This document shows positions 3,920 through 38,195 of a stretch of 64,000 nt of DNA, in pieces. Each line of letters begins with the position of its first letter. Position 1 is the stretch's first letter. The DNA is from an uncultured Bacteroidales bacterium (GTDB taxonomy: Bacteria; Bacteroidota; Bacteroidia; Bacteroidales; WCHB1-69). The position numbers and the translations under genes are program-made. Location of the stretch: positions 39,299-103,298 of the forward strand of contig CAMVBK010000003.1 of assembly GCA_947165685.1 (NCBI GenBank), in the 5' to 3' direction. Below the pieces are notes generated by a model, which saw only the letters and a program-made list of their open reading frames with translations, was not told where the DNA came from and searched no databases.

Positions 3920-3934
3920 CCGAAAAATGGAACT

Positions 3935-6025: not shown

Positions 6026-6088
6026 CCCACTTTTAGAACGTACATATAGCATATTATAAAATAAAGAAAATCAGATAAATAGAAAATT

Positions 6089-17379: not shown

Positions 17380-18924
17380 TTATTCCACCACTTTCCAGTC
17401 CTGAATCTTGCGGGTTTCAGAGGAGAAGTTCACTCCGATCTTGTAGAGCTTGCGCGGGTCGTGGGCGAACGGCGCGGCGTATTGCCTCTCTTCGATCTGC
17501 GCCAGCGCCTCTTCGACGGATTTGTCTAACTTGAACTCGAACAGGTAGATGTAGTCGGCGGTCTGCACCACCATGTCCATGCGGCCGTCGGAAGTGTGCC
17601 GCTCGGTCTCCGTGTAGAAACCCAACATTTGGAAGATGAGGCTCACGGCATTGTGGAAGTAGAGCTCCGCGTCTCCGGCGATTTGGTAGTCTTGGTTGGC
17701 GAACAGGGACTCCAGACGTGCCATGAACTTCAAAGGCTCCCCTGCCTCTATCTCTTGCACGAAGTTCATCACAAACAGACCGGTCTTCTCTTTCCTGAGC
17801 GGCACGTAGTATGGGAACAGGAAGAGGTTGAACCCGCGTTCCACCTCTTGGTTCGGGAATCCGAGCTGGTAGGTTCGGAAACGTGCGTTGTAACTCTTGA
17901 TGGTAAGATAGCCGCTTTGGTAGAGCAGCGGTATTGGATTGGTGTCGATAGCGTCCAAACTCCCGAGCAAATCTGCCGTTACATTTTCGCGGGTGAGCTG
18001 CTCCAGGTCGTAATTATTGCGTTTCAGGACCTCCACCAGGAACGTGGGCGTGCCCGACTGGAACCACTGGTCGCCGAACTCCTTGCGTTTTAAGGCAGAC
18101 AACAGACTGAAAGGATTATACATCCCCGCGCTGTTGGGGTGGAAGTGGTAGCCGTCGTATTGTTCTTTCAGTCTCCCGTAGCACTCCTCCTTGGTCAGGC
18201 CGTTGGCCGCCGCCAGTTCCCCGACTTGTGCATCGATGTTGTCGCGGATTTCCTGCTCGGTGATGCCGCAGATTTCGGCATACTGCTCTGACAACGAGAT
18301 GTCTTCCAGGTTGTTGAGGTCGCTGAACACGCTCACTTTCGAGAACTTGGTCACACCGGTGAAGAAGGCGAGACGGATGCACGCATCCATGGTCTTGACC
18401 ACCCCGTAGAAACCTTTCAGAATCTTGCGGTAGTCGTCCTGAAGTTTCTCGTCGCCGATGGCCTGCAACAGCGGCTTGTCGTACTCATCCACCAGAATCA
18501 CCACCTGCCTGCCGGCTTGTTCGCAGGTGCGGCGGATGACGCCTTTGAATCGTTCGGAAAGAGTGTCTTCCGCCGGTTGTTTTCCGTAGGTTTCTTCAAA
18601 ACGTCGCAGATGCCCGTCAAGGATAGAGACCAGGGCTTCCTCGCTTCTGTAGTCGGCGGCGTTGAGGTCTATATGAAACACGGGATACGGGTTCCACTCG
18701 GTCTCTAATTTGCTGATGGCCAGTCCGTCGAACAATTCCTTTCGGCCTTGGAAGTAGGCCTCTAACGTGGTGATCAGCAGACTCTTGCCGAACCTGCGGG
18801 GACGGCTCAGAAAGAAGTATTTGCCGGAATTGGCCAAGTCATACACCAACTTCGTTTTGTCAATGTACAGAAAACCTTCTTTGATGATATTCGCGAATGT
18901 CTGTATGCCGATGGGGTATTTCAT
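17380..18924 (-). CDS. AAA-ATPase-like / PD-(D/E)XK nuclease family protein (DUF1703-type), copy 1
   Basis: MKYPIGIQTF...YIDKT...RPRRFGKSL (N-terminal ATPase-like domain). The C-terminal GRMDMVVQT..YIYLFEFK is a PD-(D/E)XK-like motif. Paralog at 28209-29753. Confidence 0.8.
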   Translation of the reverse strand: MKYPIGIQTFANIIKEGFLYIDKTKLVYDLANSGKYFFLSRPRRFGKSLLITTLEAYFQGRKELFDGLAISKLETEWNPYPVFHIDLNAADYRSEEALVSILDGHLRRFEETYGKQPAEDTLSERFKGVIRRTCEQAGRQVVILVDEYDKPLLQAIGDEKLQDDYRKILKGFYGVVKTMDACIRLAFFTGVTKFSKVSVFSDLNNLEDISLSEQYAEICGITEQEIRDNIDAQVGELAAANGLTKEECYGRLKEQYDGYHFHPNSAGMYNPFSLLSALKRKEFGDQWFQSGTPTFLVEVLKRNNYDLEQLTRENVTADLLGSLDAIDTNPIPLLYQSGYLTIKSYNARFRTYQLGFPNQEVERGFNLFLFPYYVPLRKEKTGLFVMNFVQEIEAGEPLKFMARLESLFANQDYQIAGDAELYFHNAVSLIFQMLGFYTETERHTSDGRMDMVVQTADYIYLFEFKLDKSVEEALAQIEERQYAAPFAHDPRKLYKIGVNFSSETRKIQDWKVVE

Positions 18925-19008
18925 AGGGATATATTTTCAGGCTGCAAAGATAGGATTTATTTCCGATAGCGGATGCCTTGTCGCTATGCTTTTGTGGTGT
19001 TTGGAATT

Positions 19009-19091
19009 ATGGCGCGAAGATAATGTTTTTTCGGGTTGGGGCGACAATTAAGATATTTTTTTGACGACAACAGAGACAACTTGGACAACAT
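19009..19091 (-). repeat. Inverted extra copy of the about-85-bp orphan-cassette leader element
   Basis: The reverse complement aligns at about 85% by eye with 23134-23216 (gttgtc..gttgtcgtcaaaaaa..atcttaattgt..ccaacccgaaaaaa..ttatcttcgcgccat). No toxin ORF follows it. Confidence 0.75.
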
Positions 19092-19164
19092 GATTGCCCC
19101 ATGGCGGGACGGGAGGATTTTGTCGGGTATGTGTCGGTGTGGATCATGGCGCGAACTATATTCA

Positions 19165-20415
19165 TCATCGTTTCGTAATAACAAATTCCACCCGCCGGTT
19201 CAGCCTGAAGTCATCATTGCCGAAACATTTCCTACATCCCTCTCCTGACAACTTGTTGCAATCGATTAAGGGATAGTAATCATAGCATTGCTTTCCCGTA
19301 ACGTAGGACGTGTCCACACCTTTATTCCCCAAATAGAAAATAATCTCTTCGTACATATACAACAACAAGCTTATAGAATAGGAGTCATCATATTCTTTAA
19401 GTGACAGGTGTATGTCAACCTCTACGGATTTCACATCTTTATGTGAGATCAAGTAAGCCGCAATCGAATCCAAGAGAACGCGATTCTGATAGTCGTTGGT
19501 GTCCAAATGCAGAGTTACAAACTGAAAACAAATATCATGCGTTCTGAGCATCACCTTTTTAGAATCAGAATGAGCCAGCTCGTGAACGGTTTTGACCACG
19601 GGAATGGTATCGTCTCGCAAAGTCGTCTGCGCACTTCTTTTGTTTGTTGATGAAAGACTATCGGCAACCGTCACCATTATGCGACTATTGTATTTCATCG
19701 CCTTGGATTTTTCATCTGCGGGGAGATTGCGTATAAACTCCTCGTCCAAAAGGTCCTTAAAATGAAAATAGTTGTCAAATTCCTCCGGATATACTATTTG
19801 ATAAGGTTCAAAAGGATGCATAAGGACATCTATCTTTGAAGAATCCACACCATGTTGTAACAATATGTTTTTCACGCAATTTATTCTTTGTTCGCACAGT
19901 GTCTGGTCTTCTGAAATACAAAAAGCATTTAGTTGTATGATGAAATTGTTGGCTTTCTGAATTTTCCCCAACCACAAAACCGGGTATGTATAAATAGTGT
20001 TGAAATTTGTGTCGGGAACGATGCTTGCACTGTCGAAAAAGAATGCAGGCAGTTGCGGTTCTGAAAAAATGTAGTTCATTTTAACATGAATAGTTGTATC
20101 AGATAAGTTTTTTGGAATCTTTAAGTCAAAGACTTTGTCATGATAGTGGAATTTGTGAACTCTGATTCTGAATGCGTGGTCTATGGCATTGTCCAACACG
20201 AAGTGTGCGACATGGGGTTCATCAAAAGAAGGGAATACAATAGAGTCGTCGATATAAACACTATAACTGGTAACAATCTCTTCTGTCAAAGAGTCTGTGG
20301 CAAATAACGTTAATTTAACCGATTGTGTTCTTGCTATACCTGGCAATATCAACAAGATGCTTAATCCAATCCATGCAAAGATACTATTGATTTGATTCCT
20401 GCTCATATAACGCAT
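19165..20415 (-). CDS. Exported protein with two degenerate OmpA-like (peptidoglycan-binding) regions
   Basis: Has an N-terminal signal/TM segment and ends in FRLNRRVEFVITKR (OmpA C-terminal signature). A second OmpA-like stretch lies around FFFDSASIV...LCEQRINCVKNILLQHGVD. The gene is AT-rich. Confidence 0.5.
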   Translation of the reverse strand: MRYMSRNQINSIFAWIGLSILLILPGIARTQSVKLTLFATDSLTEEIVTSYSVYIDDSIVFPSFDEPHVAHFVLDNAIDHAFRIRVHKFHYHDKVFDLKIPKNLSDTTIHVKMNYIFSEPQLPAFFFDSASIVPDTNFNTIYTYPVLWLGKIQKANNFIIQLNAFCISEDQTLCEQRINCVKNILLQHGVDSSKIDVLMHPFEPYQIVYPEEFDNYFHFKDLLDEEFIRNLPADEKSKAMKYNSRIMVTVADSLSSTNKRSAQTTLRDDTIPVVKTVHELAHSDSKKVMLRTHDICFQFVTLHLDTNDYQNRVLLDSIAAYLISHKDVKSVEVDIHLSLKEYDDSYSISLLLYMYEEIIFYLGNKGVDTSYVTGKQCYDYYPLIDCNKLSGEGCRKCFGNDDFRLNRRVEFVITKR

Positions 20416-20723
20416 TCCTTTCTGTTTGCTCTTTTTCCTTCATCTCTATCATATCAGATGGCGTTTCAACAAAATCAGAGTTACTTTAATCCCGTATATT
20501 TCTTTCAATTTTAGCTGTTGATAAACCAGCAAATCATTGTTGATAAATAAATTAGCAACAACTTGCTGTTCTCGTGTCTTTCACCTGTTTTTGCGATTGC
20601 TTACTACAACAAACAATTGGCGAGAAATAAACACGGCAGCAAAAATACAAATTAAAAACGACAGAATCAACAGTTTCGTTTTTTTTCATCATCGATCAAT
20701 TTCGTTCATCCAGGCTTGCCGAA

Positions 20724-22511
20724 TTGGCTAACAAGTCATTGGGAATCAAATGGATAAATGCGGGCAGCAACTATTTCAACGATTATTCGCAGGAGGCCGT
20801 TCCCCTTTACAACGGGAACATTTCCGCCCTTTCCGAAAGTATCTATAACTTATGGAACAGAGGGATTCTAAAACTTTTCCGTTACGACAAGTTGAACAGG
20901 ATCAAAAGGATGCGAACGGCCGCACATCATTTCGAGGGGTCTGGATGGGAGACACCCTCCGACAACTTTGCCACGGATTACACCTACGACTGGAACGGAA
21001 ATTTGCTATCTTTGCGGCGCAAAAACCAATACGGCGAGGAGATGCACGATATCCGATATACGTACCCGAATGGCAACAATCGCCTGGGAAGCATAGCTGC
21101 CACCGGTATTTCATCCAGTGTCTATCAGTACGATGCGTTGGGCAACCTGGTGCGCGACAATGCCGAGGGTTTGACCGTGGGCTGGAACGCCTTGGGAAAA
21201 GTGGATACCATCCGCAGGAACGGTAACCTCCTGTCCGCATTCCGCTACAGTCCCACGGGCCAGCGGCAGGTGAAGACCGACTCCTCGGGCACGGCCTTCT
21301 ACATCCACGACGCCACGGGCAACGTGATGTGCATTTACCGGCAGGATGGCGACACCCTGAGAGCCACGGAGCGGTATCTATATGGCAGCAAGCGTTTAGG
21401 CATGTTGGAGCAACAGGTGTGGATTGCCGCGGGCGGCGTGGCACGATTGCAGGATGCCAGCACCATAGGGGCCCGTGTTTACGAGTTTACCGACCATTTG
21501 GGCAATGTGACCTACACGGCACAAGACCGGAAATACCTTGTGCCGGACAGTTATGGCCAACTTCAATATCTCCCTTCCACGGTCACCTACACCGACTACT
21601 ACCCCTTCGGCTACCCCATGCCAGGCCGAAGTTCCTACATGGGGGGTTATCGGTACTTCTTCAATGGGCAGGAGTCTGATAATGAGGTGTTTGGGGAAGT
21701 GATGAGTTTGACCGCTGAATTCTGGCAGTACGATACGAGGTTGGGCCGGAGGTGGAATGTGGACCCCGTGTTCAAGGAGTACGAGAGTCCGTATGCGTGC
21801 TTCGCGGGGAATCCGGTGCGGTTTGCGGATCCGAGAGGAAAGGATGGACGCGTTACTTATACTGAGACTGAAAATGGAGGAGACATTGTTGTTGAAACAA
21901 AATTCTTCGTTTATGGCAAAGGTGCAGAGATTGCTGTAGAAAACGCGAACAAACAGTTTGCTAAGTTAAACACATCCACTTCTGTTGTGATTGATGGAAA
22001 GACATACAATATCAGGCTGAATATCACATGGGAGGTTCGTCAAGATCTTGCAGACATGGACATTGAGAATATGGATTATGCCGATCTTCAATCAATAGAA
22101 GGGTATCAGGAAGGGGACAATTTCCTAAAAGTAGGGGTTCCCGTAGGAGGAGGAAGAACTGGTTTCCTCGGTGAAGGATACAAGGGCGGAAATACAGGTT
22201 ATTCTTTGGTAACATCCGCAGATGCGGTACTCCATGAATCTTTCCACAATCTGGGATTTAAAGATACGTATTATCAAAAAGGATTCGAACGCGACGTAAT
22301 GTCAAGTGGAGCACTTGCGGGACAAGAAATCAATCAAATTCATTACGAGGCTTTGATTCCTATTATTTTGCAAAACTATAATTACATCAAAGAACGTGTC
22401 ATTGCCAATCAGACGTTGGGGACTAACTGGCCTGTCCATAAATTGGGACTGGACATTAACAATCCGAAACAGTTTCATATTTTGCTACGAAGTATCTATC
22501 TGGATTATTAA
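20724..22511 (+). CDS. RHS repeat-associated core protein, 5'-truncated, with an HExxH C-terminal toxin domain
   Basis: YD repeats YTYDWNGNLLSL and YQYDALGNLV, plus DHLGN and YYPFG. The core end is GGYRYFFNGQESDNE..RLGRRWNVDPV..FADPRGKDG, followed by an unrelated tail containing HESFH. An in-frame stop sits at 20628 and the first start is TTG, so the usual long N-terminal shell is absent. Confidence 0.8.
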   Translation: MANKSLGIKWINAGSNYFNDYSQEAVPLYNGNISALSESIYNLWNRGILKLFRYDKLNRIKRMRTAAHHFEGSGWETPSDNFATDYTYDWNGNLLSLRRKNQYGEEMHDIRYTYPNGNNRLGSIAATGISSSVYQYDALGNLVRDNAEGLTVGWNALGKVDTIRRNGNLLSAFRYSPTGQRQVKTDSSGTAFYIHDATGNVMCIYRQDGDTLRATERYLYGSKRLGMLEQQVWIAAGGVARLQDASTIGARVYEFTDHLGNVTYTAQDRKYLVPDSYGQLQYLPSTVTYTDYYPFGYPMPGRSSYMGGYRYFFNGQESDNEVFGEVMSLTAEFWQYDTRLGRRWNVDPVFKEYESPYACFAGNPVRFADPRGKDGRVTYTETENGGDIVVETKFFVYGKGAEIAVENANKQFAKLNTSTSVVIDGKTYNIRLNITWEVRQDLADMDIENMDYADLQSIEGYQEGDNFLKVGVPVGGGRTGFLGEGYKGGNTGYSLVTSADAVLHESFHNLGFKDTYYQKGFERDVMSSGALAGQEINQIHYEALIPIILQNYNYIKERVIANQTLGTNWPVHKLGLDINNPKQFHILLRSIYLDY

Positions 22512-22515
22512 AACC

Positions 22516-23130
22516 ATGAGACTGACTACGTTAATTTTATATTTGCTGTTACCCATATTCTGTATTGGGCAAAGCAGTGCTGAACAAAAGTTCTGTTTCT
22601 GCTTTTTTGACAAATTTGGAGCAGAAGTAACCCCTTCTGAAATGCTGGTGCTGGACAACACAGGGGGTGTTTTTAATTTAGACAGTTCCAAATGTTTTCG
22701 TCATAAGGCCGACACGTCTTATTCTTTTATTTTGCAGGTGATAGACAGAAATTATTACTTTTCCCAAAAACAGTATGATGCCAATGAGATGTCGGGCTGT
22801 GACACGGTTCGATTGGAAAACATGGAGTGTATTAACAAACTCGCCTTCAGCTCTCACCGATTGAAACTGAACAACCGTCAGAAAAAGCAGATCGCCTCCT
22901 TCTTCTCAAACAGTAGGCGCGGGTTCCATCGCATTGCCATTCTTGTAGGGAAACCAACACGTGCGAAAACAGAAGCGAAACAGTGCGTCAACGATATCAT
23001 CAGATTATACGAAAAGGATTTGAAAGCAAGAAACATTCAGCAAACGCCCGAAGTGATGGTGCATTTCTACAATTTGCCTGAGGGGGGAAATACTTTTACG
23101 TTTGAGATTGAAGCGTATGATTACAAATAA
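22516..23130 (+). CDS. Putative immunity protein 1 (exported)
   Basis: Starts 5 nt after the toxin stop. Signal peptide MRLTTLILYLLLPIFCIGQSS. AT-rich with no known motif; assigned by position. Confidence 0.5.
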   Translation: MRLTTLILYLLLPIFCIGQSSAEQKFCFCFFDKFGAEVTPSEMLVLDNTGGVFNLDSSKCFRHKADTSYSFILQVIDRNYYFSQKQYDANEMSGCDTVRLENMECINKLAFSSHRLKLNNRQKKQIASFFSNSRRGFHRIAILVGKPTRAKTEAKQCVNDIIRLYEKDLKARNIQQTPEVMVHFYNLPEGGNTFTFEIEAYDYK

Positions 23131-23201
23131 CTGTTGTTCCGCGTTGTCCCCGTTGTCGTCAAAAAACACATCTTAATTGTTTCACCAACCCGAAAAAAAC
23201 T

Positions 23202-23209
23202 TATCTTCG
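23202..23209 (+). promoter_or_regulatory. -7-like box TAtcTTCG 4 nt upstream of the orphan-1 ATG
   Basis: cttatcttcgcgccATG. The same arrangement occurs at 25152-25159, with a degenerate version at 26585-26594. Confidence 0.4.
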
Positions 23210-23213
23210 CGCC

Positions 23214-24155
23214 ATGAACCACACCTCCACATACCCGCCAAAATTCCCCCGTCCCGCCATGGGGGGTTATCGGTACTTCTTCAACGGGCAGGAGGCTGAT
23301 AATGAGGTGCTTGGAGAAGGGATGAGTTTGGCCGCTGAATTTTGGCAGTACGACACGAGATTGGGCAGGAGGTGGAATGTGGACCCTGTGTTCAAGGAGT
23401 ACGAGAGTCCGTATGCGTGCTTCGCGGGGAATCCGGTATGGTTTGCGGACAGATTTGGAGCGGATACCGCATTCGACGATAACATAGCTAGAAATAATTT
23501 CTTAGAAAGTTATCAGTGGATTATTGGCCAAATATCATCAATCGAGAATAAAACTGCTGCTATTCGAGCGCAAGCTGCCCAGAAAGGATGGAATGACAAT
23601 AAAACAAATAGTAAAATCGACAAATTATTTGGTAAATACGACTACAACACGCTTCTTGAGATGAGGCAAGGATTTGAGGAAATCATGAGAGATCCTAACA
23701 TAATCGTCACATATTCAACAAACGAAGATATGATAGAAGACTTTACCGGGGGGCACACAAAACATGTTGACGACCTACATGTGAATGTATATTTCCGACG
23801 AAACAAGTTAGGGACCCTCATTCATGAATCCCGTCACGCATGGGGAGTGATAAGAAAAGAGTGGTCATTTAGAGGCGGATATGATACCACAGACGAACTA
23901 GTTGCTTTCACTTGGCAAAGTGTTAAAGATCCGACCGCAGTGAATTTATTTAAAGAAACCGTTTCAAAAATATACTATCGGAATGATTTGAGCCAAATGA
24001 TTGAAATGAGCTTGAGCAGTGCCATCAACTATTATTACATTGAAGTCTTGCATAAGAACATGACCAGAAGTGCTATACCTATACCAGAACCCTTCACTCA
24101 AATAAAAAACATTCAAACCGCAGGTTCTTATATCAGAAAACTCCTGAAAAGATAA
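23214..24155 (+). CDS. Orphan RHS C-terminal module 1 (core end plus an HExxH-containing tail)
   Basis: MNHTSTYPPKFPRPAMGGYRYFFNGQEADNE..RLGRRWNVDPVFKEYESPYACFAGNPVWFADRFG, then a unique tail containing LIHESRHAWG. Confidence 0.75.
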   Translation: MNHTSTYPPKFPRPAMGGYRYFFNGQEADNEVLGEGMSLAAEFWQYDTRLGRRWNVDPVFKEYESPYACFAGNPVWFADRFGADTAFDDNIARNNFLESYQWIIGQISSIENKTAAIRAQAAQKGWNDNKTNSKIDKLFGKYDYNTLLEMRQGFEEIMRDPNIIVTYSTNEDMIEDFTGGHTKHVDDLHVNVYFRRNKLGTLIHESRHAWGVIRKEWSFRGGYDTTDELVAFTWQSVKDPTAVNLFKETVSKIYYRNDLSQMIEMSLSSAINYYYIEVLHKNMTRSAIPIPEPFTQIKNIQTAGSYIRKLLKR

Positions 24156-24203
24156 CTTTAGTTTAGAAGAAGTATTCAATGTCCTCAAATAGTCACATAT
24201 AAA

Positions 24204-25151
24204 ATGAAACGTGCTCTTTATAATCTTGTAACATTCCTCTGTTTTCTAAACTTGCCATCGCTGCATGCACAAAACCAACCACCCGTTTGGATAGAAATTG
24301 TTCAGGGTGGCTTCCCCAATTACATAATCTTTTCACGTTATGGGGTGATTGTGTCAACGTTTGATTATAATCTCAATGACCGCTTGCACCTTTTTAATAC
24401 CTCATACTACCCGACAAGGACATTAGGTAACAGTCACATAGATAGTCTGCTTGAATATGTCGTTTTTCAGTATCAAAACTCAGAGCACAAAAAATTTATC
24501 ACTCATGATGTGTTGATATTGGATGGCTCTTATACAGAAATCAGAATCCATAACGGTCATTCAATTAACACATTAAGGACAACCGAAGAGTGCTACAGCA
24601 AAGAGATGGATATTATTGAACGAATGGCAAATCAAATCCTTAGCGAATTATCGGACTCTAACAGAATAGATCTCGGTGGGTATTGCGATCATTGTGAAAT
24701 CGTCAAAGCATCGCCTTATTGTCATTTCAAAACAATGGAGAATCCGACATTCTATGGATTTTTCTTCCAAATGATTGTTGATGACGAAGTTCTTCTTACT
24801 CTTCATGATGACCTTGGCATATTATATCAAGATACCGATGTGATTTTCATACCACGATTCCCGAACCGCGTCAAAAGGCATGAGTTCATGAATTGGAGAA
24901 AGCTGCTTTATCAAACGATAAGAACGGATATCCTCCAAAGTCAATTTGACACAACACCTTCATATACAGGTGGCTATTTGTTGGTTCGACTTGATGACAA
25001 GTGGGCATATATGAATCACGTGGACAGAAAAGTTATTAATAAATGGCTGAACAAAATGGAATGCGTCGTGCCACGCGCTTATCGCAAATCCTTCAAACGC
25101 AAAAAAACAATGATACTCCAATCGTGGAATAAAAATGTATCTAATATTTAG
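24204..25151 (+). CDS. Putative immunity protein 2 (exported)
   Basis: Signal peptide MKRALYNLVTFLCFLNLPSLHAQ. Assigned by its position after the orphan toxin. AT-rich. Confidence 0.5.
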   Translation: MKRALYNLVTFLCFLNLPSLHAQNQPPVWIEIVQGGFPNYIIFSRYGVIVSTFDYNLNDRLHLFNTSYYPTRTLGNSHIDSLLEYVVFQYQNSEHKKFITHDVLILDGSYTEIRIHNGHSINTLRTTEECYSKEMDIIERMANQILSELSDSNRIDLGGYCDHCEIVKASPYCHFKTMENPTFYGFFFQMIVDDEVLLTLHDDLGILYQDTDVIFIPRFPNRVKRHEFMNWRKLLYQTIRTDILQSQFDTTPSYTGGYLLVRLDDKWAYMNHVDRKVINKWLNKMECVVPRAYRKSFKRKKTMILQSWNKNVSNI

Positions 25152-25159
25152 TATCTTCG
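25152..25159 (+). promoter_or_regulatory. -7-like box TAtcTTCG 4 nt upstream of the orphan-2 ATG
   Basis: agtatcttcgcgccATG. Confidence 0.4.
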
Positions 25160-25163
25160 CGCC

Positions 25164-26219
25164 ATGATCCGCACCGCCACATACCCGCCCCAGCCCCCTC
25201 GTTACTATAAGGGGGGGTATCGGTACTTTTTCAACGGGCAAGAGGGAGATAACGAGGTGCTTGGGGAGGGGACTCTGCACGCCTTCGAGTACCGCATGCA
25301 CGACACGCGCACCGGGCGGTTCTGGAGCGTTGATCCCTTGGCGGGGAAGTTCCCGTGGTGGTCCACTTATCAGTTCGCAGGACTTATGCCAACATGGAGC
25401 AGAGAGCTGGAAGGGTTGGAACCGCTTAATAAAGGGAGTTATAATGGTCAAGGTGCTTATGCTCCTGTATTGGACGAAAACAATAATCCCGTTGATGGTA
25501 CAGAAGACCAAACTTGGATATGGAACAACGACACTTGGAATCAATCTGAATATGCCATTGTATATGAAATAATGAACAGTGTTTTCAAAAACGCCAAACC
25601 CTCGTTATTGAGAGGTGCCGAAGTCGCAGTAAATTTGTATGGCTCCACGTTTGGCATAAATAATCGGGAGGCTATTTGTCATTTCTTTGCGCAAGCAGGA
25701 CATGAAAGTGCTGGATTCACTAAAGTCGAAGAGAGTTTCAATTACACTGTCAAAGGTCTGTTGGGAACCTTCGGTAAATATTTCTACGTAGGAGCTCCTG
25801 TGGAAGGCAAATTTAATGCTGAAGAATATGGCCGAACAAACGATCATCCGGCAAACTATGAAGGTATTGCCAATATTGTTTATGACAATCGAATGGGTAA
25901 TGGGAAAAATGAAGGCTATTTGTATCGAGGTCGAGGATTAATACAATTAACAGGAAAGTCAAATTATCAAGCTTTTACGAACTACTTGAATAAAACGTTC
26001 ACGAACAATACAGTTGATTTTGTCCAATCACCTCAACTGGTGGCAACAGATCAATATGCGGTATTAAGTGCCATGTGGTTTTTCAAAAAGAACGTTATTG
26101 ACAAGATTGACATTGATAATGCAAGTGTAAAAGATGTGACGAAAATTGTTAATGGAGGGTATAATGGGTTGAAAGACCGCGAGAGTAAATATGAACAACT
26201 AAAAAACACTCTAAAGTGA
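25164..26219 (+). CDS. Orphan RHS C-terminal module 2 with a GH19/COG3179-like peptidoglycan hydrolase (chitinase/lysozyme) tail
   Basis: The core end is diverged: GGYRYFFNGQEGDNE..TRTGRFWSVDPLAGKFPWWSTYQFAG. The tail has ICHFFAQAGHESAGF, YRGRGLIQLTGKSNYQAF and LSAMWFF, which are GH19-type motifs. Confidence 0.75.
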   Translation: MIRTATYPPQPPRYYKGGYRYFFNGQEGDNEVLGEGTLHAFEYRMHDTRTGRFWSVDPLAGKFPWWSTYQFAGLMPTWSRELEGLEPLNKGSYNGQGAYAPVLDENNNPVDGTEDQTWIWNNDTWNQSEYAIVYEIMNSVFKNAKPSLLRGAEVAVNLYGSTFGINNREAICHFFAQAGHESAGFTKVEESFNYTVKGLLGTFGKYFYVGAPVEGKFNAEEYGRTNDHPANYEGIANIVYDNRMGNGKNEGYLYRGRGLIQLTGKSNYQAFTNYLNKTFTNNTVDFVQSPQLVATDQYAVLSAMWFFKKNVIDKIDIDNASVKDVTKIVNGGYNGLKDRESKYEQLKNTLK

Positions 26220-26581
26220 AACAATACATCTTCATTTTATTTTGGACATTAATTGGGGTATTCGTTTCTTCTGCTCAAGTCAGGATAGATTGCAATACAA
26301 AAGATTTGTATGATAATATTCAAGGCGTGTGGAGGCAAACTGATGGTTCTGGAAATGCTCTGGCAATAGTAGATAGCAATGCGTATTTTTTGTATGGCAC
26401 AGATCAAAGTGTTTGGCAAGATGATGTTGGAAACTTATTCAGCATAGTGAAAAATGACAAAGAAGAATCATTTTTTATATGGTGGTTAGATATGTTAGTT
26501 CAAGAATTTGTTTTGGAAAAAGATACATTGCTGCTGTTGGATTTTAAAGGACGTTCTGAAACGTATATTCGAATTAAGTAA
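26216..26581 (+). CDS. Putative immunity protein 3 (exported)
   Basis: GTG start overlaps the toxin stop (gtga). Signal peptide MKQYIFILFWTLIGVFVSSAQ. Confidence 0.5.
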   Translation: MKQYIFILFWTLIGVFVSSAQVRIDCNTKDLYDNIQGVWRQTDGSGNALAIVDSNAYFLYGTDQSVWQDDVGNLFSIVKNDKEESFFIWWLDMLVQEFVLEKDTLLLLDFKGRSETYIRIK

Positions 26582-26594
26582 AAACTATCGCGCC

Positions 26595-27517
26595 ATGAAT
26601 TTCACGACCACATACCCGCCAAAATCCTCCCGTTCCGCTATGGGGGTATATTGGTATTTCTTCAACGGGCAGGAGGCTGATAATGAGGTGCTTGGAGAGG
26701 GGCGAGTTTGACCGCGGAATTCTGGCAGTACGACACGAGGCTGGGCCGGAGGTGGAATGTGGACCCTGTTTTCAAGGAGTATGAAAGTCCGTATGCGTGC
26801 TTTGCAGGGAACCCGGTGTGGTTTGCGGATCCGAATGGAGACAGTAGTGTTGTTGATGCTAAAGGGTACATGATTTATTATGATGAGAACGACAAGGATT
26901 TGCGAGTTTTCATTAATGAGAACGGTAAGTTAAGACAAATTGGAGAATTAGGAAAGACAATTGAAGCAGACACTTGGTTCGCTAATTTGCTAAAAGAAAA
27001 TGCTGCCGCCGCGAAAGATTCTTGGAATCCTGTTAGCTTCAGGAACAAAGTGAAGCAGTATGGTGAGTGGGATTATAAATATGCTAGTAAAGGCAATAAA
27101 GAAAATGAGAACATCCGTTATCACTTGTTAGGCATTGCCTTTTACAGAAAAGACAAAAACAACAAGGACGCTGATTTGCCAGAGACCTATTTCTCGTTTA
27201 ATGGAATGATAGGAAGAGCCGAAGATTTGAACAACTTTCACTTTGGTGTTGTTGGCAAAGCATTCGGATGGTTCCCTGAGACCTTTATGCTAAAACAGGC
27301 TGGAAAAGCCGAAATGGATAAATGGGCGGAAGAAGGGCGGACTGTTCCTGCTGAATGGACCCCAAGAATAGAAGTTATCAAATTTCGAGGCGGAATGATA
27401 CCAACCTCTTATACCACAACAAAGTTACTGCCTCCTTACGGGGATAACCCTATTGACCATGAGTGGATAAAACGCGGATTTGAATATTATAATAATATGA
27501 CACTATCAAATGACTGA
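26595..27517 (+). pseudogene. Orphan RHS C-terminal module 3, frameshifted
   Basis: MNFTTTYPPKSSRSAMGVYWYFFNGQEADNEVLGEG stops at 26709-26711. The core continues in another frame (AEFWQYDTRLGRRWNVDPV...FADPNGDS). Compared with orphan 1, 1 nt is missing near 26697-26702. Confidence 0.7.
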
Positions 27518-27520
27518 AAG

Positions 27521-28132
27521 ATGAACCGTATCCCACGTATAATCGTCCTATCAATTCTGATTGTCATAGGTGTCGTAGGTGTAGCTTATGTGGCAATTAT
27601 GGCGTATATACACTATGATGTGTTCGGAAAAAGTCCGTCGTATGAAGGGACCAGACAAAATTTCATCAATAATGAGTTATATTTTCAGAAGACAGAAGAT
27701 TGTTTTCAGAAAATTTTCCAATGCTGTTCTTCCGTCGATTCAACAATGGAACTCATTAGATTCACTATTGACAATTCTAGCAACAATTTTGTGTTTTTTC
27801 AATATTTTTCGATAGAAGACAGAAGGCAACTTCTATTCCCGATTAGGGATTCTGGTCTTGAAATAAGCCAAAATCAAAAAGAAACATTGCAGTCCAACGG
27901 CATCACTCCTCAAATGATAGAAACACTTTATTCTAATCTAAAAAAAACAAATTGTCGTTCGGTGGAGAAAGATAAACTAAATTCTAACAACACGATATTT
28001 ATGACTTTTAAAATACTCGATTATTGTTCTATTCAATATATGTTTTATCCTCAACCTTTTGAAGAAGATTCCATTAAGAGTCATATCTCCAACACGCCAC
28101 TCGGTCGGCGAGTAAGGATCTATGTCGAATAA
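27521..28132 (+). CDS. Putative immunity protein 4 (N-terminal membrane anchor)
   Basis: Starts 3 nt after the toxin stop. TM helix IIVLSILIVIGVVGVAYVAIMAY. Confidence 0.45.
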   Translation: MNRIPRIIVLSILIVIGVVGVAYVAIMAYIHYDVFGKSPSYEGTRQNFINNELYFQKTEDCFQKIFQCCSSVDSTMELIRFTIDNSSNNFVFFQYFSIEDRRQLLFPIRDSGLEISQNQKETLQSNGITPQMIETLYSNLKKTNCRSVEKDKLNSNNTIFMTFKILDYCSIQYMFYPQPFEEDSIKSHISNTPLGRRVRIYVE

Positions 28133-28181
28133 TTCCACAAATGTTGTCCAAGTTGTCCAAGTTGTCTTTCTAAATAAATTG

Positions 28182-28189
28182 TATCTTTG
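28182..28189 (+). promoter_or_regulatory. -7 promoter box TAtcTTTG for ATPase copy 2
   Basis: Lies 19 nt upstream of ATG 28209. Confidence 0.45.
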
Positions 28190-28208
28190 CGGCAAAAATT
28201 TTGTCATT

Positions 28209-29753
28209 ATGAAATACCCCATCGGTATACAGACATTCGCCGAAATTATCGACAAAGGATACGTCTATATAGATAAAACGGCATTGGTGTATAAACTGGC
28301 CAACAGCGGATGCTACTATTCCCTGCATCGTCCCCGCAGGTTCGGCAAGAGTCTGCTGATCACCACGTTGGAGGCCTACTTCCAAGGCCGAAAGGAATTG
28401 TTCGACGGACTGGCCATCAGCAAGTTAGAGACCGAGTGGAACCCGTATCCCGTGTTTCATATAGACCTCAACGCCGCCGACTACAGAAGCGAGGAAGCCC
28501 TGGTCTCTATCCTTGACGGGCATCTGCGACGTTTTGAAGAAACCTACGGAAAACAACCGGCGGAAGACACTCTTTCCGAACGATTCAAAGGCGTCATCCG
28601 CCGCACCTGCGAACAAGCCGGCAGGCAGGTGGTGATTCTGGTGGATGAGTACGACAAGCCGCTGTTGCAGGCCATCGGCGACGAGAAACTTCAGGACGAC
28701 TACCGCAAGATTCTGAAAGGTTTCTACGGGGTGGTCAAGACCATGGATGCGTGTATCCGTCTCGCCTTCTTCACCGGTGTGACCAAGTTCTCGAAAGTGA
28801 GCGTGTTTAGTGATCTTAACAACCTGAAAGACATTTCGTTGGACAACAGGTATGCTGAGATTTGCGGTATCACGGAGAAAGAAATCCATGACAACATTGA
28901 CGCGGAGGTGGAAAGCATGGCCTCGGCTAACGGGATGAGCAAGGACGAGTGCTATGAGAAACTGAAAAAACAGTACGACGGCTACCATTTCAGCAAGAAC
29001 GGCACAGGAATGTACAATCCTTTCAGCCTGCTTAACGCGCTTGACAGCCAAGAGTTCGGCGACCAGTGGTTCCAGTCAGGTACGCCCACATTCTTAGTGG
29101 AGGTGATGAAGCGCAACCACTATGACCTGGAACAGCTCGCCCGCGAGGAGGCCACGGCCGACCTGTTGGGCAGTCTGGATGCCATCGACACCAACCCGAT
29201 CCCGCTGCTTTATCAGAGCGGCTATCTCACCATAAAAGGCTATGACCCTGAGTTTTGCACCTATCGACTGGGGTTCCCAAACCAAGAGGTGGAACGAGGC
29301 TTTTCCCGTTTTCTATTCCGATACTACACCCCTGCTTCCCAAGGACAGGGCAGCTTTGTAAAGGATTTCGTCTTGGCGGCGCGAGCCGGCCAGACCGACG
29401 AGTTCATGAAACGGCTGGAGACATTATTCGCCGGACAAGACTACCAGATAGCGGGTGACGCGGAGCTCTACTTCCACAACGCCGTCGCGCTCATCTTCAA
29501 GATGGTGGGCTTCTACACGGAGACCGAGCGGCACACTTCCGACGGCCGCATGGACATGGTGGTGCAGACCGCCGACTACATCTACCTGTTCGAGTTCAAG
29601 TTAGACAAATCCGTCGAAGAGGCGCTGGCGCAGATCGAAGAGAGGCAATACGCCGCGCCGTTCGCCCACGACCCGCGCAAGCTCTACAAGATCGGAGTGA
29701 ACTTCTCCTCTGAAACCCGCAAGATTCAGGACTGGAAAGTGGTGGAGCGGTAA
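28209..29753 (+). CDS. AAA-ATPase-like / PD-(D/E)XK nuclease family protein (DUF1703-type), copy 2
   Basis: Colinear with copy 1 and starts with the same MKYPIGIQTF. The 28122 start of the ORF track was rejected because it runs through the promoter box. Confidence 0.8.
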   Translation: MKYPIGIQTFAEIIDKGYVYIDKTALVYKLANSGCYYSLHRPRRFGKSLLITTLEAYFQGRKELFDGLAISKLETEWNPYPVFHIDLNAADYRSEEALVSILDGHLRRFEETYGKQPAEDTLSERFKGVIRRTCEQAGRQVVILVDEYDKPLLQAIGDEKLQDDYRKILKGFYGVVKTMDACIRLAFFTGVTKFSKVSVFSDLNNLKDISLDNRYAEICGITEKEIHDNIDAEVESMASANGMSKDECYEKLKKQYDGYHFSKNGTGMYNPFSLLNALDSQEFGDQWFQSGTPTFLVEVMKRNHYDLEQLAREEATADLLGSLDAIDTNPIPLLYQSGYLTIKGYDPEFCTYRLGFPNQEVERGFSRFLFRYYTPASQGQGSFVKDFVLAARAGQTDEFMKRLETLFAGQDYQIAGDAELYFHNAVALIFKMVGFYTETERHTSDGRMDMVVQTADYIYLFEFKLDKSVEEALAQIEERQYAAPFAHDPRKLYKIGVNFSSETRKIQDWKVVER

Positions 29754-34746: not shown

Positions 34747-35211
34747 TTATTGCCTTTTTGGGCGAGCCGTCACAGGGGGGCGGCGCTTCCAAGCGTCGCC
34801 AAAATTACTAATTTCTAATTGCGGCAGCTTGTTGTTCGAGACCCTCCCGTCGGCGTAGTAGTAGCGCATCTCGCCGTTGCTGGAGAACACGCCCTCGTTG
34901 CCGAGAAATTGTCCTGACCCCGGCATGTCGTCCACCGAGCCAATCCCGTGCACAAAACCGACAAAGTCACGGTACCACGGAAAAAATACCTCCTCCCCGC
35001 TCGGGTCCACCCACTGCAGCGGGTTGTTCAAACAGTACGAGTACCGGTTGTAGCTCTGCGTGAAGTCGGGCAGTTGCACGAAATTGTCGGGGGAGAAGAA
35101 GCGGGCGATCACGGGGTCGTACAGGCGGCCGTTCATGTTGATGACCTTCAGGCCGTCGTAGTGCTCGTGGCCGGTGAAGTTATGTGTGTGATTTCTAACA
35201 ACTTTATTCAT
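34747..35211 (-). CDS. Orphan RHS core-end fragment with a short truncated tail
   Basis: FTGHEHYDGLKVINMNGRLYDPVIARFFSPDNFVQ..NRYSYCLNNPLQWVDPSGE. About 187 bp are near-identical to 37592-37778. The tail shares SSNGEMRYYxADGRVSNNKLPQ with ORF 35671-36384. Confidence 0.7.
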   Translation of the reverse strand: MNKVVRNHTHNFTGHEHYDGLKVINMNGRLYDPVIARFFSPDNFVQLPDFTQSYNRYSYCLNNPLQWVDPSGEEVFFPWYRDFVGFVHGIGSVDDMPGSGQFLGNEGVFSSNGEMRYYYADGRVSNNKLPQLEISNFGDAWKRRPPVTARPKRQ

Positions 35212-35216
35212 TTCCT

Positions 35217-35669
35217 TTATAAGACTTTCGCATTGATTAATAACGACAGCATAAAGAAAGCAACAATTATCATAGTATGTAAGAGGGCAATGGCTACAAC
35301 GAGAACCATCGGTAAGACTCTTTTCAAGTTTTCAATAGATTTAACAAAAGATTCCCCGGCATAAGACAAGAACACTTCCTTTTTTTTTGCTGATGATTTT
35401 ATGGTGTAATGATCGATTACAGACAGTGAAATTACAACTAAAAGCACACCTATAAAAACAAAAAGGTAATATTCACTGTAATATTGCAATACAAGATTTG
35501 GAAAGAAAAAAGGAACAATACTCCACAACACGATCCAAATATGAAATCCCAATAATCCCAAAGCACTTGATAGTGTGGAATACATTATTTCAAGAGAAAG
35601 CCATTGATACGCTCTACTAAGCCATTTCAACCACCATGAAAAGTGAATATTTTTTGCTTGAGAATCCAT
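35217..35669 (-). CDS. Putative immunity protein (polytopic membrane protein)
   Basis: Its ATG lies 2 nt after the upstream toxin stop. It has 3-4 hydrophobic helices and is AT-rich. Confidence 0.45.
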   Translation of the reverse strand: MDSQAKNIHFSWWLKWLSRAYQWLSLEIMYSTLSSALGLLGFHIWIVLWSIVPFFFPNLVLQYYSEYYLFVFIGVLLVVISLSVIDHYTIKSSAKKKEVFLSYAGESFVKSIENLKRVLPMVLVVAIALLHTMIIVAFFMLSLLINAKVL

Positions 35670-35670
35670 G

Positions 35671-36384
35671 TTAATACATCTTTCCAAAACCGCCGAAGCT
35701 ATCTGTTGATACGTCTAATATAAAATATGTAGTACTAATTGCAAATCCTAAAGGACCGCCAAAGACACCTAAACAAGTCATGGCAAAATCTATCCCGAAT
35801 TTTGTTGTTGCCTCCCATGAAAATCCATGATTGTTGGTATATGTAAATAAATCATATCCTTCAAGACCAATAGATACAGCTGCCAATCCATTTCCTGTCC
35901 ACTTTGCCACGCTTTTGAGTGCTTTACCTGACTGTCCGATAGAATGGTTATATCTCCATGTCCTTTTAGATTCAGAAAGATTTTTAAACTTACGCCATGT
36001 CCTAGCAGATTTATACTTGCTCCTGGCTGCAAATTCAATCAGATGATACTGCGTTCCAACAGAGACTGATAACCCGTTCAACCCGTTGATATATCCGGGA
36101 TTTATGGGAGCCATATATTGGAAAGTGGTAGAGAAGCTGCCCGTCTGTCCGGAGGGGTCGCCGATGCGGTAGAAGCCCGCGCCGCGCATGGGGAAAGAGG
36201 GGAAGGCAAGCTCCGATGGATTCCCCCGGTCGATGAACACCTGCGGCAGCTTGTTGTTCGAGACCCTCCCGTCGGCGAAGTAGTAGCGCATCTCGCCGTT
36301 GCTGGAGAAGCCGTGTGTCTCCGCGTATCGCACGGATCGCGCGGATAATTCCTCAGGGCTGTATGTTCGGGGCGGGTTCGTCAT
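35671..36384 (-). CDS. Orphan toxin module with a Gly-rich hydrophobic C-terminus (putative membrane-active toxin)
   Basis: The N-terminus shares the linker SSNGEMRYYFADGRVSNNKLPQ. The C-terminus GLAAVSIGLEG...FAMTCLGVFGGPLGFAISTTYFIL..FGGFG is glycine-zipper-like. ATG 36384 was chosen, with a -7 box upstream. Confidence 0.55.
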   Translation of the reverse strand: MTNPPRTYSPEELSARSVRYAETHGFSSNGEMRYYFADGRVSNNKLPQVFIDRGNPSELAFPSFPMRGAGFYRIGDPSGQTGSFSTTFQYMAPINPGYINGLNGLSVSVGTQYHLIEFAARSKYKSARTWRKFKNLSESKRTWRYNHSIGQSGKALKSVAKWTGNGLAAVSIGLEGYDLFTYTNNHGFSWEATTKFGIDFAMTCLGVFGGPLGFAISTTYFILDVSTDSFGGFGKMY

Positions 36385-36402
36385 TTTTCTACAATTCCGT
36401 CG

Positions 36403-36410
36403 CAAAAGTA
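36403..36410 (-). promoter_or_regulatory. -7 promoter box TActTTTG (minus strand) for the orphan toxin
   Basis: The plus strand reads caaaagta, 18 nt upstream of ATG 36384. Confidence 0.4.
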
Positions 36411-36525
36411 CGATTTATTTGGTTTGATGTGCGAAATTTGTAGCGTAATATATGAACACTTCTGATGGCTTCTGATGATTCGGTTGATTCTTCTGGCAAT
36501 TATGGCATTGACCACTCGTTTTGCA

Positions 36526-37197
36526 TTAAGGTTCAAAGATGTCATCGTCAAATTCAATGTCAAAGATATTACCTTGAGGAGATGTTGGGTCGTCTGATGT
36601 TTGTGTTTTAATCAACCACCGTTCGTCGAAAGAGGTTGGATAAGGACAGCGTTTTCTGTATTTCAATTTATCTTTTTCATAATATGGGGCTTTAAGAGTG
36701 TTGTATTTGAGAATCTCATATTCATTTGTTTTTTCATCAAAATAAAGCAGGGAGATGGAACCTTTCAATATTGAAATAATTTTGTTGCTGGCCAGTTTTA
36801 TATCTTCTATGATAATTTTTTTATCACAAGGAAGAACTTCATCTGAAAATGCCGCCACTAACCAAGCTGAAGACACACTGTTTGATTTTCGAATTGTTTC
36901 ATCACAAGTAATAAAGGGTATTGTGTCCTTGCTGTTGTTAAAAAGAAGGAAAAAAGGAGTCTTGTCGTTGTCTAACAATGATGAGTCTTCAGTTTGGATT
37001 TTCATATATAATAGGTGGTAATAGATTTGGTACAAATTAATGTTGAGTCTCACGGATGATTCCCCGATATAATTTACCCTATCGAATTCATCGTTTACAT
37101 ATACAACTTCTTTTACGGTTATTGCTGCTTGAGCATTCACTCGAACAGATAATACTGAAACAATAGACGCCATCAGCGCAACCAAGATCCTGTTCAT
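36526..37197 (-). CDS. Putative immunity protein (exported)
   Basis: Signal peptide MNRILVALMASIVSVLSVRVNAQA. Lies directly downstream of the RHS tail. AT-rich. Confidence 0.5.
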   Translation of the reverse strand: MNRILVALMASIVSVLSVRVNAQAAITVKEVVYVNDEFDRVNYIGESSVRLNINLYQIYYHLLYMKIQTEDSSLLDNDKTPFFLLFNNSKDTIPFITCDETIRKSNSVSSAWLVAAFSDEVLPCDKKIIIEDIKLASNKIISILKGSISLLYFDEKTNEYEILKYNTLKAPYYEKDKLKYRKRCPYPTSFDERWLIKTQTSDDPTSPQGNIFDIEFDDDIFEP

Positions 37198-37208
37198 ACG
37201 ACAATTGC

Positions 37209-37427
37209 TTAATACTTTTTATATAATTGAGGATTTCCACTGACGACTTTTTTGAATTTTGCACTGGTTTTGGCATATATTTCTTGTGCTCGTTGATAAG
37301 CGACAGCATAAGATTCTCTTTGGAAAGGTGTCAAATTATTGAATTCCACTATGCCTAATTCCTTACATTGTTTCATGTGCCCTATTTCATTATCATAACT
37401 GCTTTTTATATCGTAATAGTTGTCCAA
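37209..37427 (-). other. Out-of-frame continuation of the RHS toxin tail (72 codons)
   Basis: Starts (TTG) inside the T6 run at the end of ORF 37406-38188 and ends 11 nt before the immunity ATG. One extra T would fuse the two frames. Confidence 0.5.
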
Positions 37428-38188
37428 AAAAGAAAATTGCGAGAAATCATTCGCACACCATCGTTACCTACCCAAGACATGTTGTCCTTGATTTGATTCC
37501 AAAAATCACGATTGATGATGTGAATTTTACCATCATCAATCCCATCTGTGCCTAAAAACACGCCATATTGGTCAAAATAATCCCCAAACATCTCCCCGCT
37601 CGGGTCCACCCACTGCAGCGGGTTGTTCAAACAGTACGAGTACCGGTTGTAGCTCTGCGTGAAGTCGGGCAGTTGCACGAAATTGTCGGGGGAGAAGAAG
37701 CGGGCGATCACGGGGTCGTACAGGCGGCCGTTCATGTTGATGACCTTCAGGCCGGCGTAGTGCTCGTGGCCGGTGAAGCCGCGGTCGAAACGGAAGGTCT
37801 CTGCCAATTGGCCTGGCTCGCCCTCTGCAAACACCGTCCAGTCGGCATCGGTCTTCACGTTGCCCCACGGGTCGAAGTGCAAAGCGCGGACCACCTGCTT
37901 GCCGCTGTTGGTGATGTGCGTGTAGCTGCCGAAACGGTCGGGATGCACGTAGTACATACTGTCAATGCCGTTGCGGCGCACGCAGATGGCGGCGAGGCCG
38001 TTTACACCATAGACGTAGTTGTAATGGGTGGTCACCCCGCCGGCTTCCACCTCCTTCTCGTAGTTGGAGCTGATGTGGTAGCGGGTGCGCACCACATGCC
38101 CGTGGTATTTGAACACTGCCTTCACCCGCTGTCCGTCGGCACCGTACTCCAACAGGAACGGCTGCTTGATTACGTGTCGTGTTTTCAT
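37406..38188 (-). CDS. RHS repeat-associated core fragment plus short tail (probably frameshifted toxin gene)
   Basis: YYVHPDRFGSYTHITN..LHFDPWGN..FTGHEHYAGLKVINMNGRLYDPVIARFFSPDNF..NRYSYCLNNPLQWVDPSGE. Only about 200 aa of the shell are present. Confidence 0.75.
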   Translation of the reverse strand: MKTRHVIKQPFLLEYGADGQRVKAVFKYHGHVVRTRYHISSNYEKEVEAGGVTTHYNYVYGVNGLAAICVRRNGIDSMYYVHPDRFGSYTHITNSGKQVVRALHFDPWGNVKTDADWTVFAEGEPGQLAETFRFDRGFTGHEHYAGLKVINMNGRLYDPVIARFFSPDNFVQLPDFTQSYNRYSYCLNNPLQWVDPSGEMFGDYFDQYGVFLGTDGIDDGKIHIINRDFWNQIKDNMSWVGNDGVRMISRNFLFWTTITI

Positions 38189-38195
38189 GACTATG

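Follow-up and report, generated by a model that had tools for sequence, protein, structure and literature searches.

What does an RHS toxin array do for its host when the gene at its head lacks its 5' part and no delivery genes lie nearby? We addressed this question for a locus in a 64,000-nt stretch of DNA from an uncultured Bacteroidales bacterium (the window; comparison loci and contigs are numbered L001, L004, and so on, and comparison proteins P0003, P0121, and so on). A first-pass annotation of the locus had described a 5'-truncated RHS lead gene with three orphan toxin/immunity cassettes behind it, and had proposed that the array either is a silent toxin archive or is used through a route not yet described for the Bacteroidota. 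We consider it probable that this headless locus belongs to a known kind of RHS orphan array and that it persists because it confers immunity and supplies material for recombination. The archive half of the earlier proposal comes close to this explanation, whereas we found nothing at the locus that would support an undescribed route.

The array is built around repeats of the RHS core end. Copies of a 199-nt core-end family are located at 21631-21829, 23251-23449 (92% identity), and 26631-26829 (70% ungapped, 85-88% if one indel is allowed), and a 121-nt family adds the diverged copy noted in the first-pass annotation, at 25152-25272 (81%). Repetition of this kind is far beyond chance. Each of the four copies leads into a different tail, which is followed by a small open reading frame (ORF) with a signal peptide or a membrane anchor (both judged by eye from the translations). 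The orphan architecture proposed earlier is thus correct with respect to its repeated core end, its different tails, and its small ORFs.

The lead ORF (20724-22511, plus strand) encodes 595 residues of an RHS 3' fragment from a TTG start. An in-frame TAA is found upstream at 20628-20630, and no ATG, GTG, or TTG codon lies between this stop and position 20724. The RHS stub of the lead gene (20760-21833, plus strand) comprises the last ~358 residues of the YD shell together with the core end (GGYRYFFNGQE...NPVRFADPRG). In tblastn comparisons, it corresponds to residues 1678-2048 of the full-length relative P0121 with 77.6% identity (E = 4e-179), and RHS homology starts at nt 20760. The truncation, the TTG start, and the upstream stop had all been recognized before, but the breakpoint had been expected near 20630-20724 and is now placed at 20760. 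The stub retains ~17% of ~2020 pre-toxin residues; ~80% of the shell is gone, and the signal peptide, DUF6443, and Cys-rich regions of the RHS protein are missing from the window. Indeed, the rest of P0121 (residues 1-1677) has no tblastn match in the 64 kb. The N-terminal RHS sequence expected of an orphan array is thus absent, and an inverted cassette is found upstream instead. The profile searches proposed with the first-pass annotation remained below threshold for the lead ORF, both for Pfam RHS_repeat (PF05593; E = 7.3e-4, 20.3 bits against a cutoff of 22 bits) and for the TIGR03696 RHS core (E = 1.6e-5, 25.3 bits against a cutoff of 32.5 bits). TIGR03696 nevertheless aligns over profile positions 1-75 of 76 with residues 292-372, where the core-end motif PxxxxDPxG is visible as NPVRFADPRG. 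The stub homologues P0003, P0004, and P0125 carry PF05593, and the homology to P0121 is decisive. The closest homologues of the lead protein in a large protein collection are mostly 400-1000 aa long with differing N termini, and an exhaustive search with an 893-aa relative (P0007) returned 29,740 relatives, most of them 2000-3000 aa in length, with proteins of 2200-3000 aa among them. A PDB sequence search with the lead protein gave no match.

The 20760 breakpoint is identical, with the same upstream genes, in five contigs from other samples (L004, L005, L006, L085, and L086; 97.5-99% identity). The breakpoint is not an assembly error because the same junction occurs in five independent metagenome assemblies. 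Judged by these alignments, the lead gene is truly 5'-truncated. Truncated RHS fragments with differing breakpoints (residues 1460, 1678, 1722, 1749, and 1758 among others) are common across the Bacteroidota. Orphan fragments of varied length, inverted fragments, and arrays without a full-length gene within 10 kb are likewise frequent. In L001, a transposase remnant (9415-9699, minus strand; IS5-like by eye) is located directly upstream of another truncated RHS gene, of 893 aa. RHS-homologous codons extend ~25 codons above the ATG of this gene, and it was therefore truncated independently by a mobile element.

A search for intact full-length RHS genes among the relatives was successful, yielding P0121 and six genomic alleles in rumen Bacteroidales, in which ~1670-1725 open codons precede the region homologous to the window. 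Intact relatives are ~2250 aa long and begin with a Sec signal peptide and DUF6443, behind which come a Cys-rich region, the YD shell, and finally a toxin. In P0121 (2249 aa), DUF6443 matches weakly behind the signal peptide MIMKKLSLFILMLFGLLMSSNAS (assigned by eye), the Cys-rich region spans ~1000 aa, and the YD shell and core end lead to an Ntox44 tail; a PDB sequence search with this protein found no match. In L007 (entry 2329-9137), the full-length RHS gene lies behind a 1981-aa gene and a 251-aa gene. A gene of ~1980 aa is located directly upstream of the RHS gene in every full-length rumen locus with enough flank (L007, L008, L010, L011, L012, L021, and L024) and also precedes full-length RHS genes in Chitinophagaceae and Flavobacteriales loci; the 251-aa gene is present in most rumen relatives but not in L021. 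The combination of a signal-peptide/DUF6443 RHS gene with a ~1980-aa gene is also listed for L022, L037, L038, L042, L045, L049, and L084. The ~1980-aa partner has no Pfam, NCBIfam, or PDB sequence match, and its N terminus resembles an SpvB/TcB motif by eye only. Pfam and NCBIfam scans of the 251-aa protein returned nothing significant, and we found no mention of DUF6443 in the full-text literature searched.

By tblastn, neither partner gene is present in the 64-kb window. No type VI secretion system (T6SS), PAAR, or VgrG domain was detected in 40 window ORFs scanned against Pfam, in agreement with the earlier remark that delivery genes are lacking, and a T6SS linkage was rejected on this basis. 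The missing T6SS, PAAR, and VgrG genes carry no weight, however, because intact members of the family have a Sec signal peptide and a weak DUF6443 match at their N terminus, and no PAAR match. It is the loss of the signal peptide, the N-terminal regions, ~80% of the shell, and the partner genes that makes the lead gene itself a long orphan fragment, and no toxin delivery is therefore expected from the locus.

We next consider the cassettes. Tail 1 (21834-22511, plus strand; 224 aa) is a putative metallopeptidase-like toxin, with an HExxH motif as the sole clue: His-133, Glu-134, and His-137 are invariant, and just five homologues were found. It matches no Pfam family and no PDB sequence, its AlphaFold model is poor (pLDDT 59), and a Foldseek search against the PDB found no meaningful fold match (best E = 0.036, TM scores of at most 0.19). 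The same tail occurs as an orphan cassette in L004 (7882-8553, 99.6% aa identity) and L060 (92%). Immunity-like gene 1 (22516-23130, plus strand; 204 aa, signal peptide) travels with tail 1 in L004, L005, and L060. Orphan 2 (23214-24155, plus strand), delineated from its ORF, core-end repeat, and TIGR03696 scan, contains the orphan junction described below (J-box), the core end, and a tail with an HESRH motif; as for tail 1, the HExxH motif is all we could recognize, with no family match. Its tail is 97% identical to that of a longer RHS fragment in L009 and also forms the C terminus of P0013. Immunity-like gene 2 (24204-25151, plus strand; 315 aa, signal peptide) stands behind tail 2 in L009 (100% over 113 aa) and in L010. 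Orphan 3 (25164-26219, plus strand), outlined from Pfam scans and homologues, has a J-box and a core end of the diverged type B; its tail shows a weak, sub-threshold resemblance to GH19/lysozyme enzymes (Glyco_hydro_19, E = 5.5e-5). In L007, a tail 70% identical to this one belongs to the orphan that comes first after the intact gene, and immunity-like gene 3 (26216-26581, plus strand; 121 aa, signal peptide) is paired with tail 3 in L007 and L018. Orphan 4 (26595-27517, plus strand) has a J-box, a core end, and an Ntox44 tail (E = 1.2e-9), the one clear family match among the four tails. A 1-nt deletion at ~26700, which had escaped the first-pass annotation, puts its junction (ATG at 26595) out of frame with the toxin (26708-27517). 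A 75% identical copy of tail 4 is the C terminus of a full-length RHS gene in L012. Immunity-like gene 4 (27521-28132, plus strand; 203 aa, N-terminal membrane anchor) has homologues in L064 and L012; it is 57% identical to the gene behind the intact L012 RHS gene, such that tail 4 and immunity gene 4 ride together on an intact gene there, and it is frameshifted in L004 and L005. Orphan 4 here and immunity gene 4 in those two loci are thus visibly decaying, as read from their frames. Immunity genes 1, 2, and 4 gave nothing significant in Pfam/NCBIfam scans. Toxin and immunity genes co-occur as pairs in L004, L007, L009, L012, L060, and L064, and by this co-occurrence across genomes the tails and their downstream ORFs are putative cognate toxin-immunity pairs. 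In L064, from a horse-feces metagenome-assembled genome, a protein 99.5% identical to immunity protein 4 (2598-3206) accompanies a toxin of just 91% identity. The immunity proteins also appear modular: a 448-aa L064 protein (7629-8960, minus strand) fuses two parts of the window type, the N-terminal 253 aa of a 416-aa protein discussed below and a domain 76% identical to immunity protein 1.

Cassettes have been exchanged between closely related strains. Window 18618-21694 matches L004 1-3078 with 99% identity, whereas window 21638-23321, containing tail 1 and immunity gene 1, corresponds to the fourth cassette of L004 (7683-9365, 98%). Orphans 2 and 3 (23322-26587) are absent from L004, and orphan 4 is common to both. 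The lead tail and immunity gene of the window are thus an orphan cassette in another strain, which demonstrates recombination at the core-end repeats. The switch point falls inside 21638-21725, and the stretch 21665-21720 matches neither L004 copy, so that a third donor must have been involved. The cassettes of L085 differ again, and this contig contains a further RHS fragment, longer than the first (P0003, 784 aa), that matches the stub across 942 nt with 99.6% identity. Overall, strains that are 97.5-99% identical in their flanks differ in their cassette sets, and, as these alignments indicate, recombination within the shared core swaps the tips.

A second conserved segment is found where the short orphans begin. 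The inter-cassette element at 23131-23213 (plus strand) consists of GTTGTCC repeats and an A-rich stretch, followed by TATCTTCGCGCC directly before the orphan ATG; an inverted copy is located at 18993-19062. It leads into a junction of ~65 nt, present in the window at 23202-23267, 25152-25217, 26583-26648, and, on the minus strand, 19155-18993. Short orphans share this start in at least 10 loci from different rumen and gut Bacteroidales (L001, L004, L007, L011-L014, L060, L064, L065, and L075), with the consensus TATCTT(C/T)G CGCC ATG A.. C.C ACC.CC ACA TAC CCG CCA AAA ... ATG GGG GGT TAT CGG. The junction corresponds, in diverged form, to the lead codons for YTDYYPFGYPMPGRS..MGGYRYFF, and we read it as a homology arm that would be copied along with each cassette insertion. 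We collected 43 orphan-type junctions, some of them fragments without a J-box. An exact Bacteroidetes -7 box (TAnnTTTG) is found 4 nt upstream of the junction ATG in 5 of the 43, and TATCTTCG in 20 more. With the exact box in 5 of 43, a promoter role of the junction is a lead rather than a result. The GTTGTCC repeats and the box ahead of the junction resemble the promoter region of the flanking AAA-ATPase-like genes (28143-28208).

Our preferred explanation combines these findings. The array would be the remnant of a toxin system in which an RHS protein of ~2250 aa, exported by the Sec pathway, was combined with a ~1980-aa partner encoded upstream. Homologous recombination adds and removes its cassettes, each a toxin tip with an immunity gene, and transfers them onto the lead stub, with homology supplied by the ~200-bp core-end repeat and the conserved ~65-nt orphan junction. 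Selection most likely keeps the exported or membrane-bound immunity proteins, which would guard against RHS toxins of neighboring cells, and most likely also retains the array because any intact copy can draw on it for recombination. Transcriptional silence would be part of this picture, and no TAnnTTTG promoter box is found upstream of the lead gene on the plus strand (20416-20723). Several observations weigh against this explanation. The reading frames of orphans 2 and 3 are undamaged, as are the five immunity-like ORFs. Our analysis covered the 64-kb window, and an intact RHS copy may exist elsewhere in the genome. Finally, when we compared the stub (20760-21637) with L004, L005, L006, L085, and L086, the variable sites comprised 11 synonymous and 3 non-synonymous changes, giving a ratio of non-synonymous to synonymous polymorphism (pN/pS) of 0.04-0.12 at a nearby non-coding divergence of ~1%. 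This pattern is unlike free decay and implies constraint or gene conversion from intact copies. The likeliest causes are such conversion, or intermittent selection whenever the stub recombines into an intact gene.

We compared the array to known systems. In Salmonella LT2, the orphans STM0291/STM0292 are likewise 5'-truncated rhs fragments with core homology, each having a distinct tip and an immunity gene (PMC3967940). According to the same study, orphan rhs fragments carry no signals for translation or export and become active once they recombine with the main gene (PMC3967940), and the pairs kept together and the tip swaps in our loci match this recombination behavior of enterobacterial orphans. 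The likeness extends to enterobacterial displaced rhs-CT/rhsI modules in general, which lack export signals and whose tips are moved onto another rhs gene by recombination in the shared core. Unlike in enterobacteria, however, no full-length main gene lies upstream in the window, and the apparent main gene is itself a fragment. The parent family has a Sec signal peptide, no PAAR match, and a ~1980-aa partner gene, and instead of core segments of variable length, what the short orphans have in common is a constant ~65-nt junction that brings its own ATG. In Escherichia coli K-12, rhsE is a defective chromosomal Rhs element that retains only the 3' part of the core and its extension; the window differs from it in phylum and RHS family and in holding a multi-cassette array with strain-to-strain turnover. 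A YD-repeat shell, a DPxG core end, and a variable C-terminal toxin are also found in the BC cocoon of Tc (ABC) toxins and in T6SS Rhs effectors. The window has no TcA, TcB, PAAR, or VgrG, however, and the stub falls well short of the length that a shell requires; neither a TcB with SpvB and mid domains nor a TcA translocator is encoded as a Tc-type partner in the window.

The most serious competitor of the headless-array explanation overlaps with it and differs solely in requiring a resident intact copy: a signal-peptide/DUF6443 RHS operon in the same genome would exchange sequence with the array, and stub and orphans would periodically be loaded onto the deliverable gene. The purifying-type pattern of the stub, with its 11 synonymous and 3 non-synonymous sites, keeps this possibility alive. 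The mosaic core end at 21665-21720, the nearly identical fragments in L085, which point to ongoing conversion, the window tails found on full-length or longer RHS genes elsewhere (L012 and P0013), and the Salmonella precedent (PMC3967940) all argue in the same direction. Yet protein and genome searches turned up no full-length allele with above 83% identity to the stub, and the 64-kb window contains none. We thus regard such use in trans as a real but clearly less likely alternative. It is, by comparison, highly unlikely that the truncated lead protein, or the orphans from their own ATG, are made and delivered by an undescribed route. The intact ORFs, the low pN/pS of the stub, the conserved ATG at the orphan junction, and the upstream boxes there (TAnnTTTG in 5 of 43 junctions, TATCTTCG in 20 more) would fit this idea. 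Delivery is hard to reconcile, however, with a product that has no signal peptide, ~17% of its pre-toxin region, and no partner genes, with a TTG start in a non-homologous leader without a promoter box, with truncation points that vary between genomes, and with the frameshift in orphan 4. Full-length relatives with a Sec signal (2249 aa) and a ~1980-aa gene exist, so that the proposal of a new route, made in the first-pass annotation, is not borne out at this locus.

Salmonella rhs cassettes have been reported to act as internal toxin-antitoxin modules (PMC7043789). With this precedent and a promoter-like box at the junction, one could envision that the tips are expressed from internal promoters and neutralized within the producing cell. 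Each of the five immunity-like proteins has a signal peptide or membrane anchor at its N terminus, however, and therefore would not meet a cytoplasmic toxin, and tail 3, which is cell-wall-hydrolase-like, would act outside the cytoplasm. We consider this reading just as improbable as the undescribed route. Only slightly less remote is a recombinase-driven array of immunity cassettes. The AID and rAID-1 systems of gut Bacteroidales are low-GC, co-directional arrays of orphan immunity genes with repetitive intergenic sequence and a proposed role in defense against toxins of neighbors (bioRxiv 10.1101/471110). The window shares the combination by which rAID-1 is recognized (at least two co-directional genes, GC of at most 41%, repetitive intergenic sequence), with a GC of 0.37-0.44 against 0.53-0.58 in the flanks and repetitive inter-cassette elements, and a tyrosine recombinase heads RHS orphan arrays in the related loci L014 and L011. 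The window lacks the defining XerD-like recombinase, however, its cassettes keep their toxin tips, and its toxins belong to an RHS family whose intact members have signal peptides rather than to T6SS effectors. No recombinase was detected by tblastn with the L014 enzyme and no integrase domain in the 40 ORFs scanned; rAID-1 membership was rejected on these grounds, and homologous recombination within coding repeats explains the strain differences. The L014 (7664-8470, minus strand) and L011 (13005-13808, minus strand) enzymes are 268-aa tyrosine recombinases heading co-directional, rAID-like RHS orphan/immunity arrays, with no counterpart in the window. That the truncation is an assembly chimera is next to impossible in our estimate: the region is rich in repeats and related contigs break at the AAA-ATPase-like genes, but the same 20760 junction and the same upstream inverted cassette recur in five independent assemblies from different samples.

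The headless array forms part of a low-GC island (18925-28208; the GC values given above refer to 22-28 kb), which had previously been described without its inverted upstream cassette and its boundary genes. Judged from the homologies on both strands, the island is a pair of oppositely oriented array tails that meet head to head at a 276-nt filler (20484-20759). Inverted copies of an AAA-ATPase_like + PDDEXK_9 gene bracket it, one at either end. The left copy (17380-18924, minus strand) is an inverted version of the right one (repeats 17806-18937/28196-29327, 84%; 17384-17729/29401-29746, 93%), from which the Pfam matches came. The right terminus (28143-29753, plus strand) has 2.7 repeats of GTTGTCCAA, then a TATCTTTG box, and then the gene, whose true start is probably 28209. 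The order of junction, GTTGTCCAA repeats, and AAA gene also forms the terminus of the intact L010 array and recurs at the right end of the window. Such genes represent the downstream end of RHS arrays in several species (L001 19358-20570; L010 ~17660), with a common junction sequence. The inverted boundary copies, 84-93% identical, could flip the entire 9.3-kb island, and the right copy of L004 resembles the left copy of the window (95%), which suggests conversion between the copies.

On the minus strand, two J-box scars with GTTGTC repeats (19155-19097 and 19062-18993) form inverted repeats of the orphan junction, and the repeats run into the left AAA gene. By analogy with L010, where the same junction-then-AAA-gene order is seen, 18993-19155 (minus strand) is the terminal junction of a minus-strand array tail. 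Next to it, an immunity-like gene of 416 aa with a signal peptide (19165-20415, minus strand) derives from an inverted cassette without its toxin. It is 99% identical in L004, L005, and L085, its L064 homologue stands directly downstream of an orphan RHS toxin, and its 42 relatives all come from Bacteroidales metagenomes; Pfam and NCBIfam scans gave nothing significant. The stub upstream of it (20416-20483, minus strand) represents the 3' end of the lost toxin gene plus a spacer, as concluded from blastn alignment of window 19653-20483 with L064 8194-9034 (83%), in which homology stops at 20483. In this comparison, the junction scars and the 416-aa gene are the remnant of a fifth cassette, inverted and upstream of the lead gene. 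Part of the filler is the 36-nt non-RHS leader with which the lead ORF begins (20724-20759), and the filler matches same-locus contigs only (L004, L005, L006, and L085). A short minus-strand ORF at 20640-20700 contains a poly-A tract (ATGAAAAAAAAACG...) in which a 1-nt slip would give a signal or membrane peptide; a TATTTTTG box lies nearby on the same strand. The ORF might be a relic or else serve the 416-aa gene as a phase-variable leader. No tRNA gene marks an integration site. A mirror layout, with inverted fragments beside a truncated plus-strand fragment, is also found in L001, adjoining the transposase remnant, and in L014, and RHS fragments in opposite orientations occur in L034, L064, L082, and L083. 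Presumably, the heads of one or two arrays were lost by deletion or inversion.

Elsewhere in the window, a second truncated RHS array (34747-38525, minus strand) belongs to a different core family (TIGR03696, 62.9 bits; core end WVDPSGE) and has a 260-aa stub, a core-end repeat at 34747-35211, and small membrane or secreted ORFs. Just upstream of it lie a 109-aa ORF that combines a signal peptide and a single YD repeat with a weak type IX secretion system (T9SS) sorting domain, and a gene for a 729-aa FG-GAP protein with a T9SS C-terminal domain. In another low-GC patch (1315-3099, plus strand), an AAA_14 + DUF4143 ATPase gene adjoins a 5'-truncated duplicate fragment of the same family.

A broader interpretation, which we offer tentatively and consider rather unlikely as it stands, is that headless arrays in rumen and gut Bacteroidales may be self-sufficient immunity islands against a T6SS-independent, Sec-dependent weapon formed by the DUF6443-RHS protein and its ~1980-aa partner. 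The junction would then serve both as a portable homology arm, by which every cassette could pass from array to array and be attached to any RHS gene, and as a cassette-borne promoter and start (GTTGTCC repeats, TATCTT(T/C)G box, ATG), keeping each immunity gene expressed without a main gene. For the locus described here, our findings mean that its ORFs should be annotated as RHS orphan fragments and immunity genes rather than as an active toxin, and that the locus should not be taken to argue for a new secretion route. The turnover of the array is fast, as cassette sets differ between strains whose flanks are just 1-2.5% apart. The signal-peptide RHS protein and its ~1980-aa partner represent a widespread Bacteroidota system without T6SS features that is apparently uncharacterized and deserves a study of its own.

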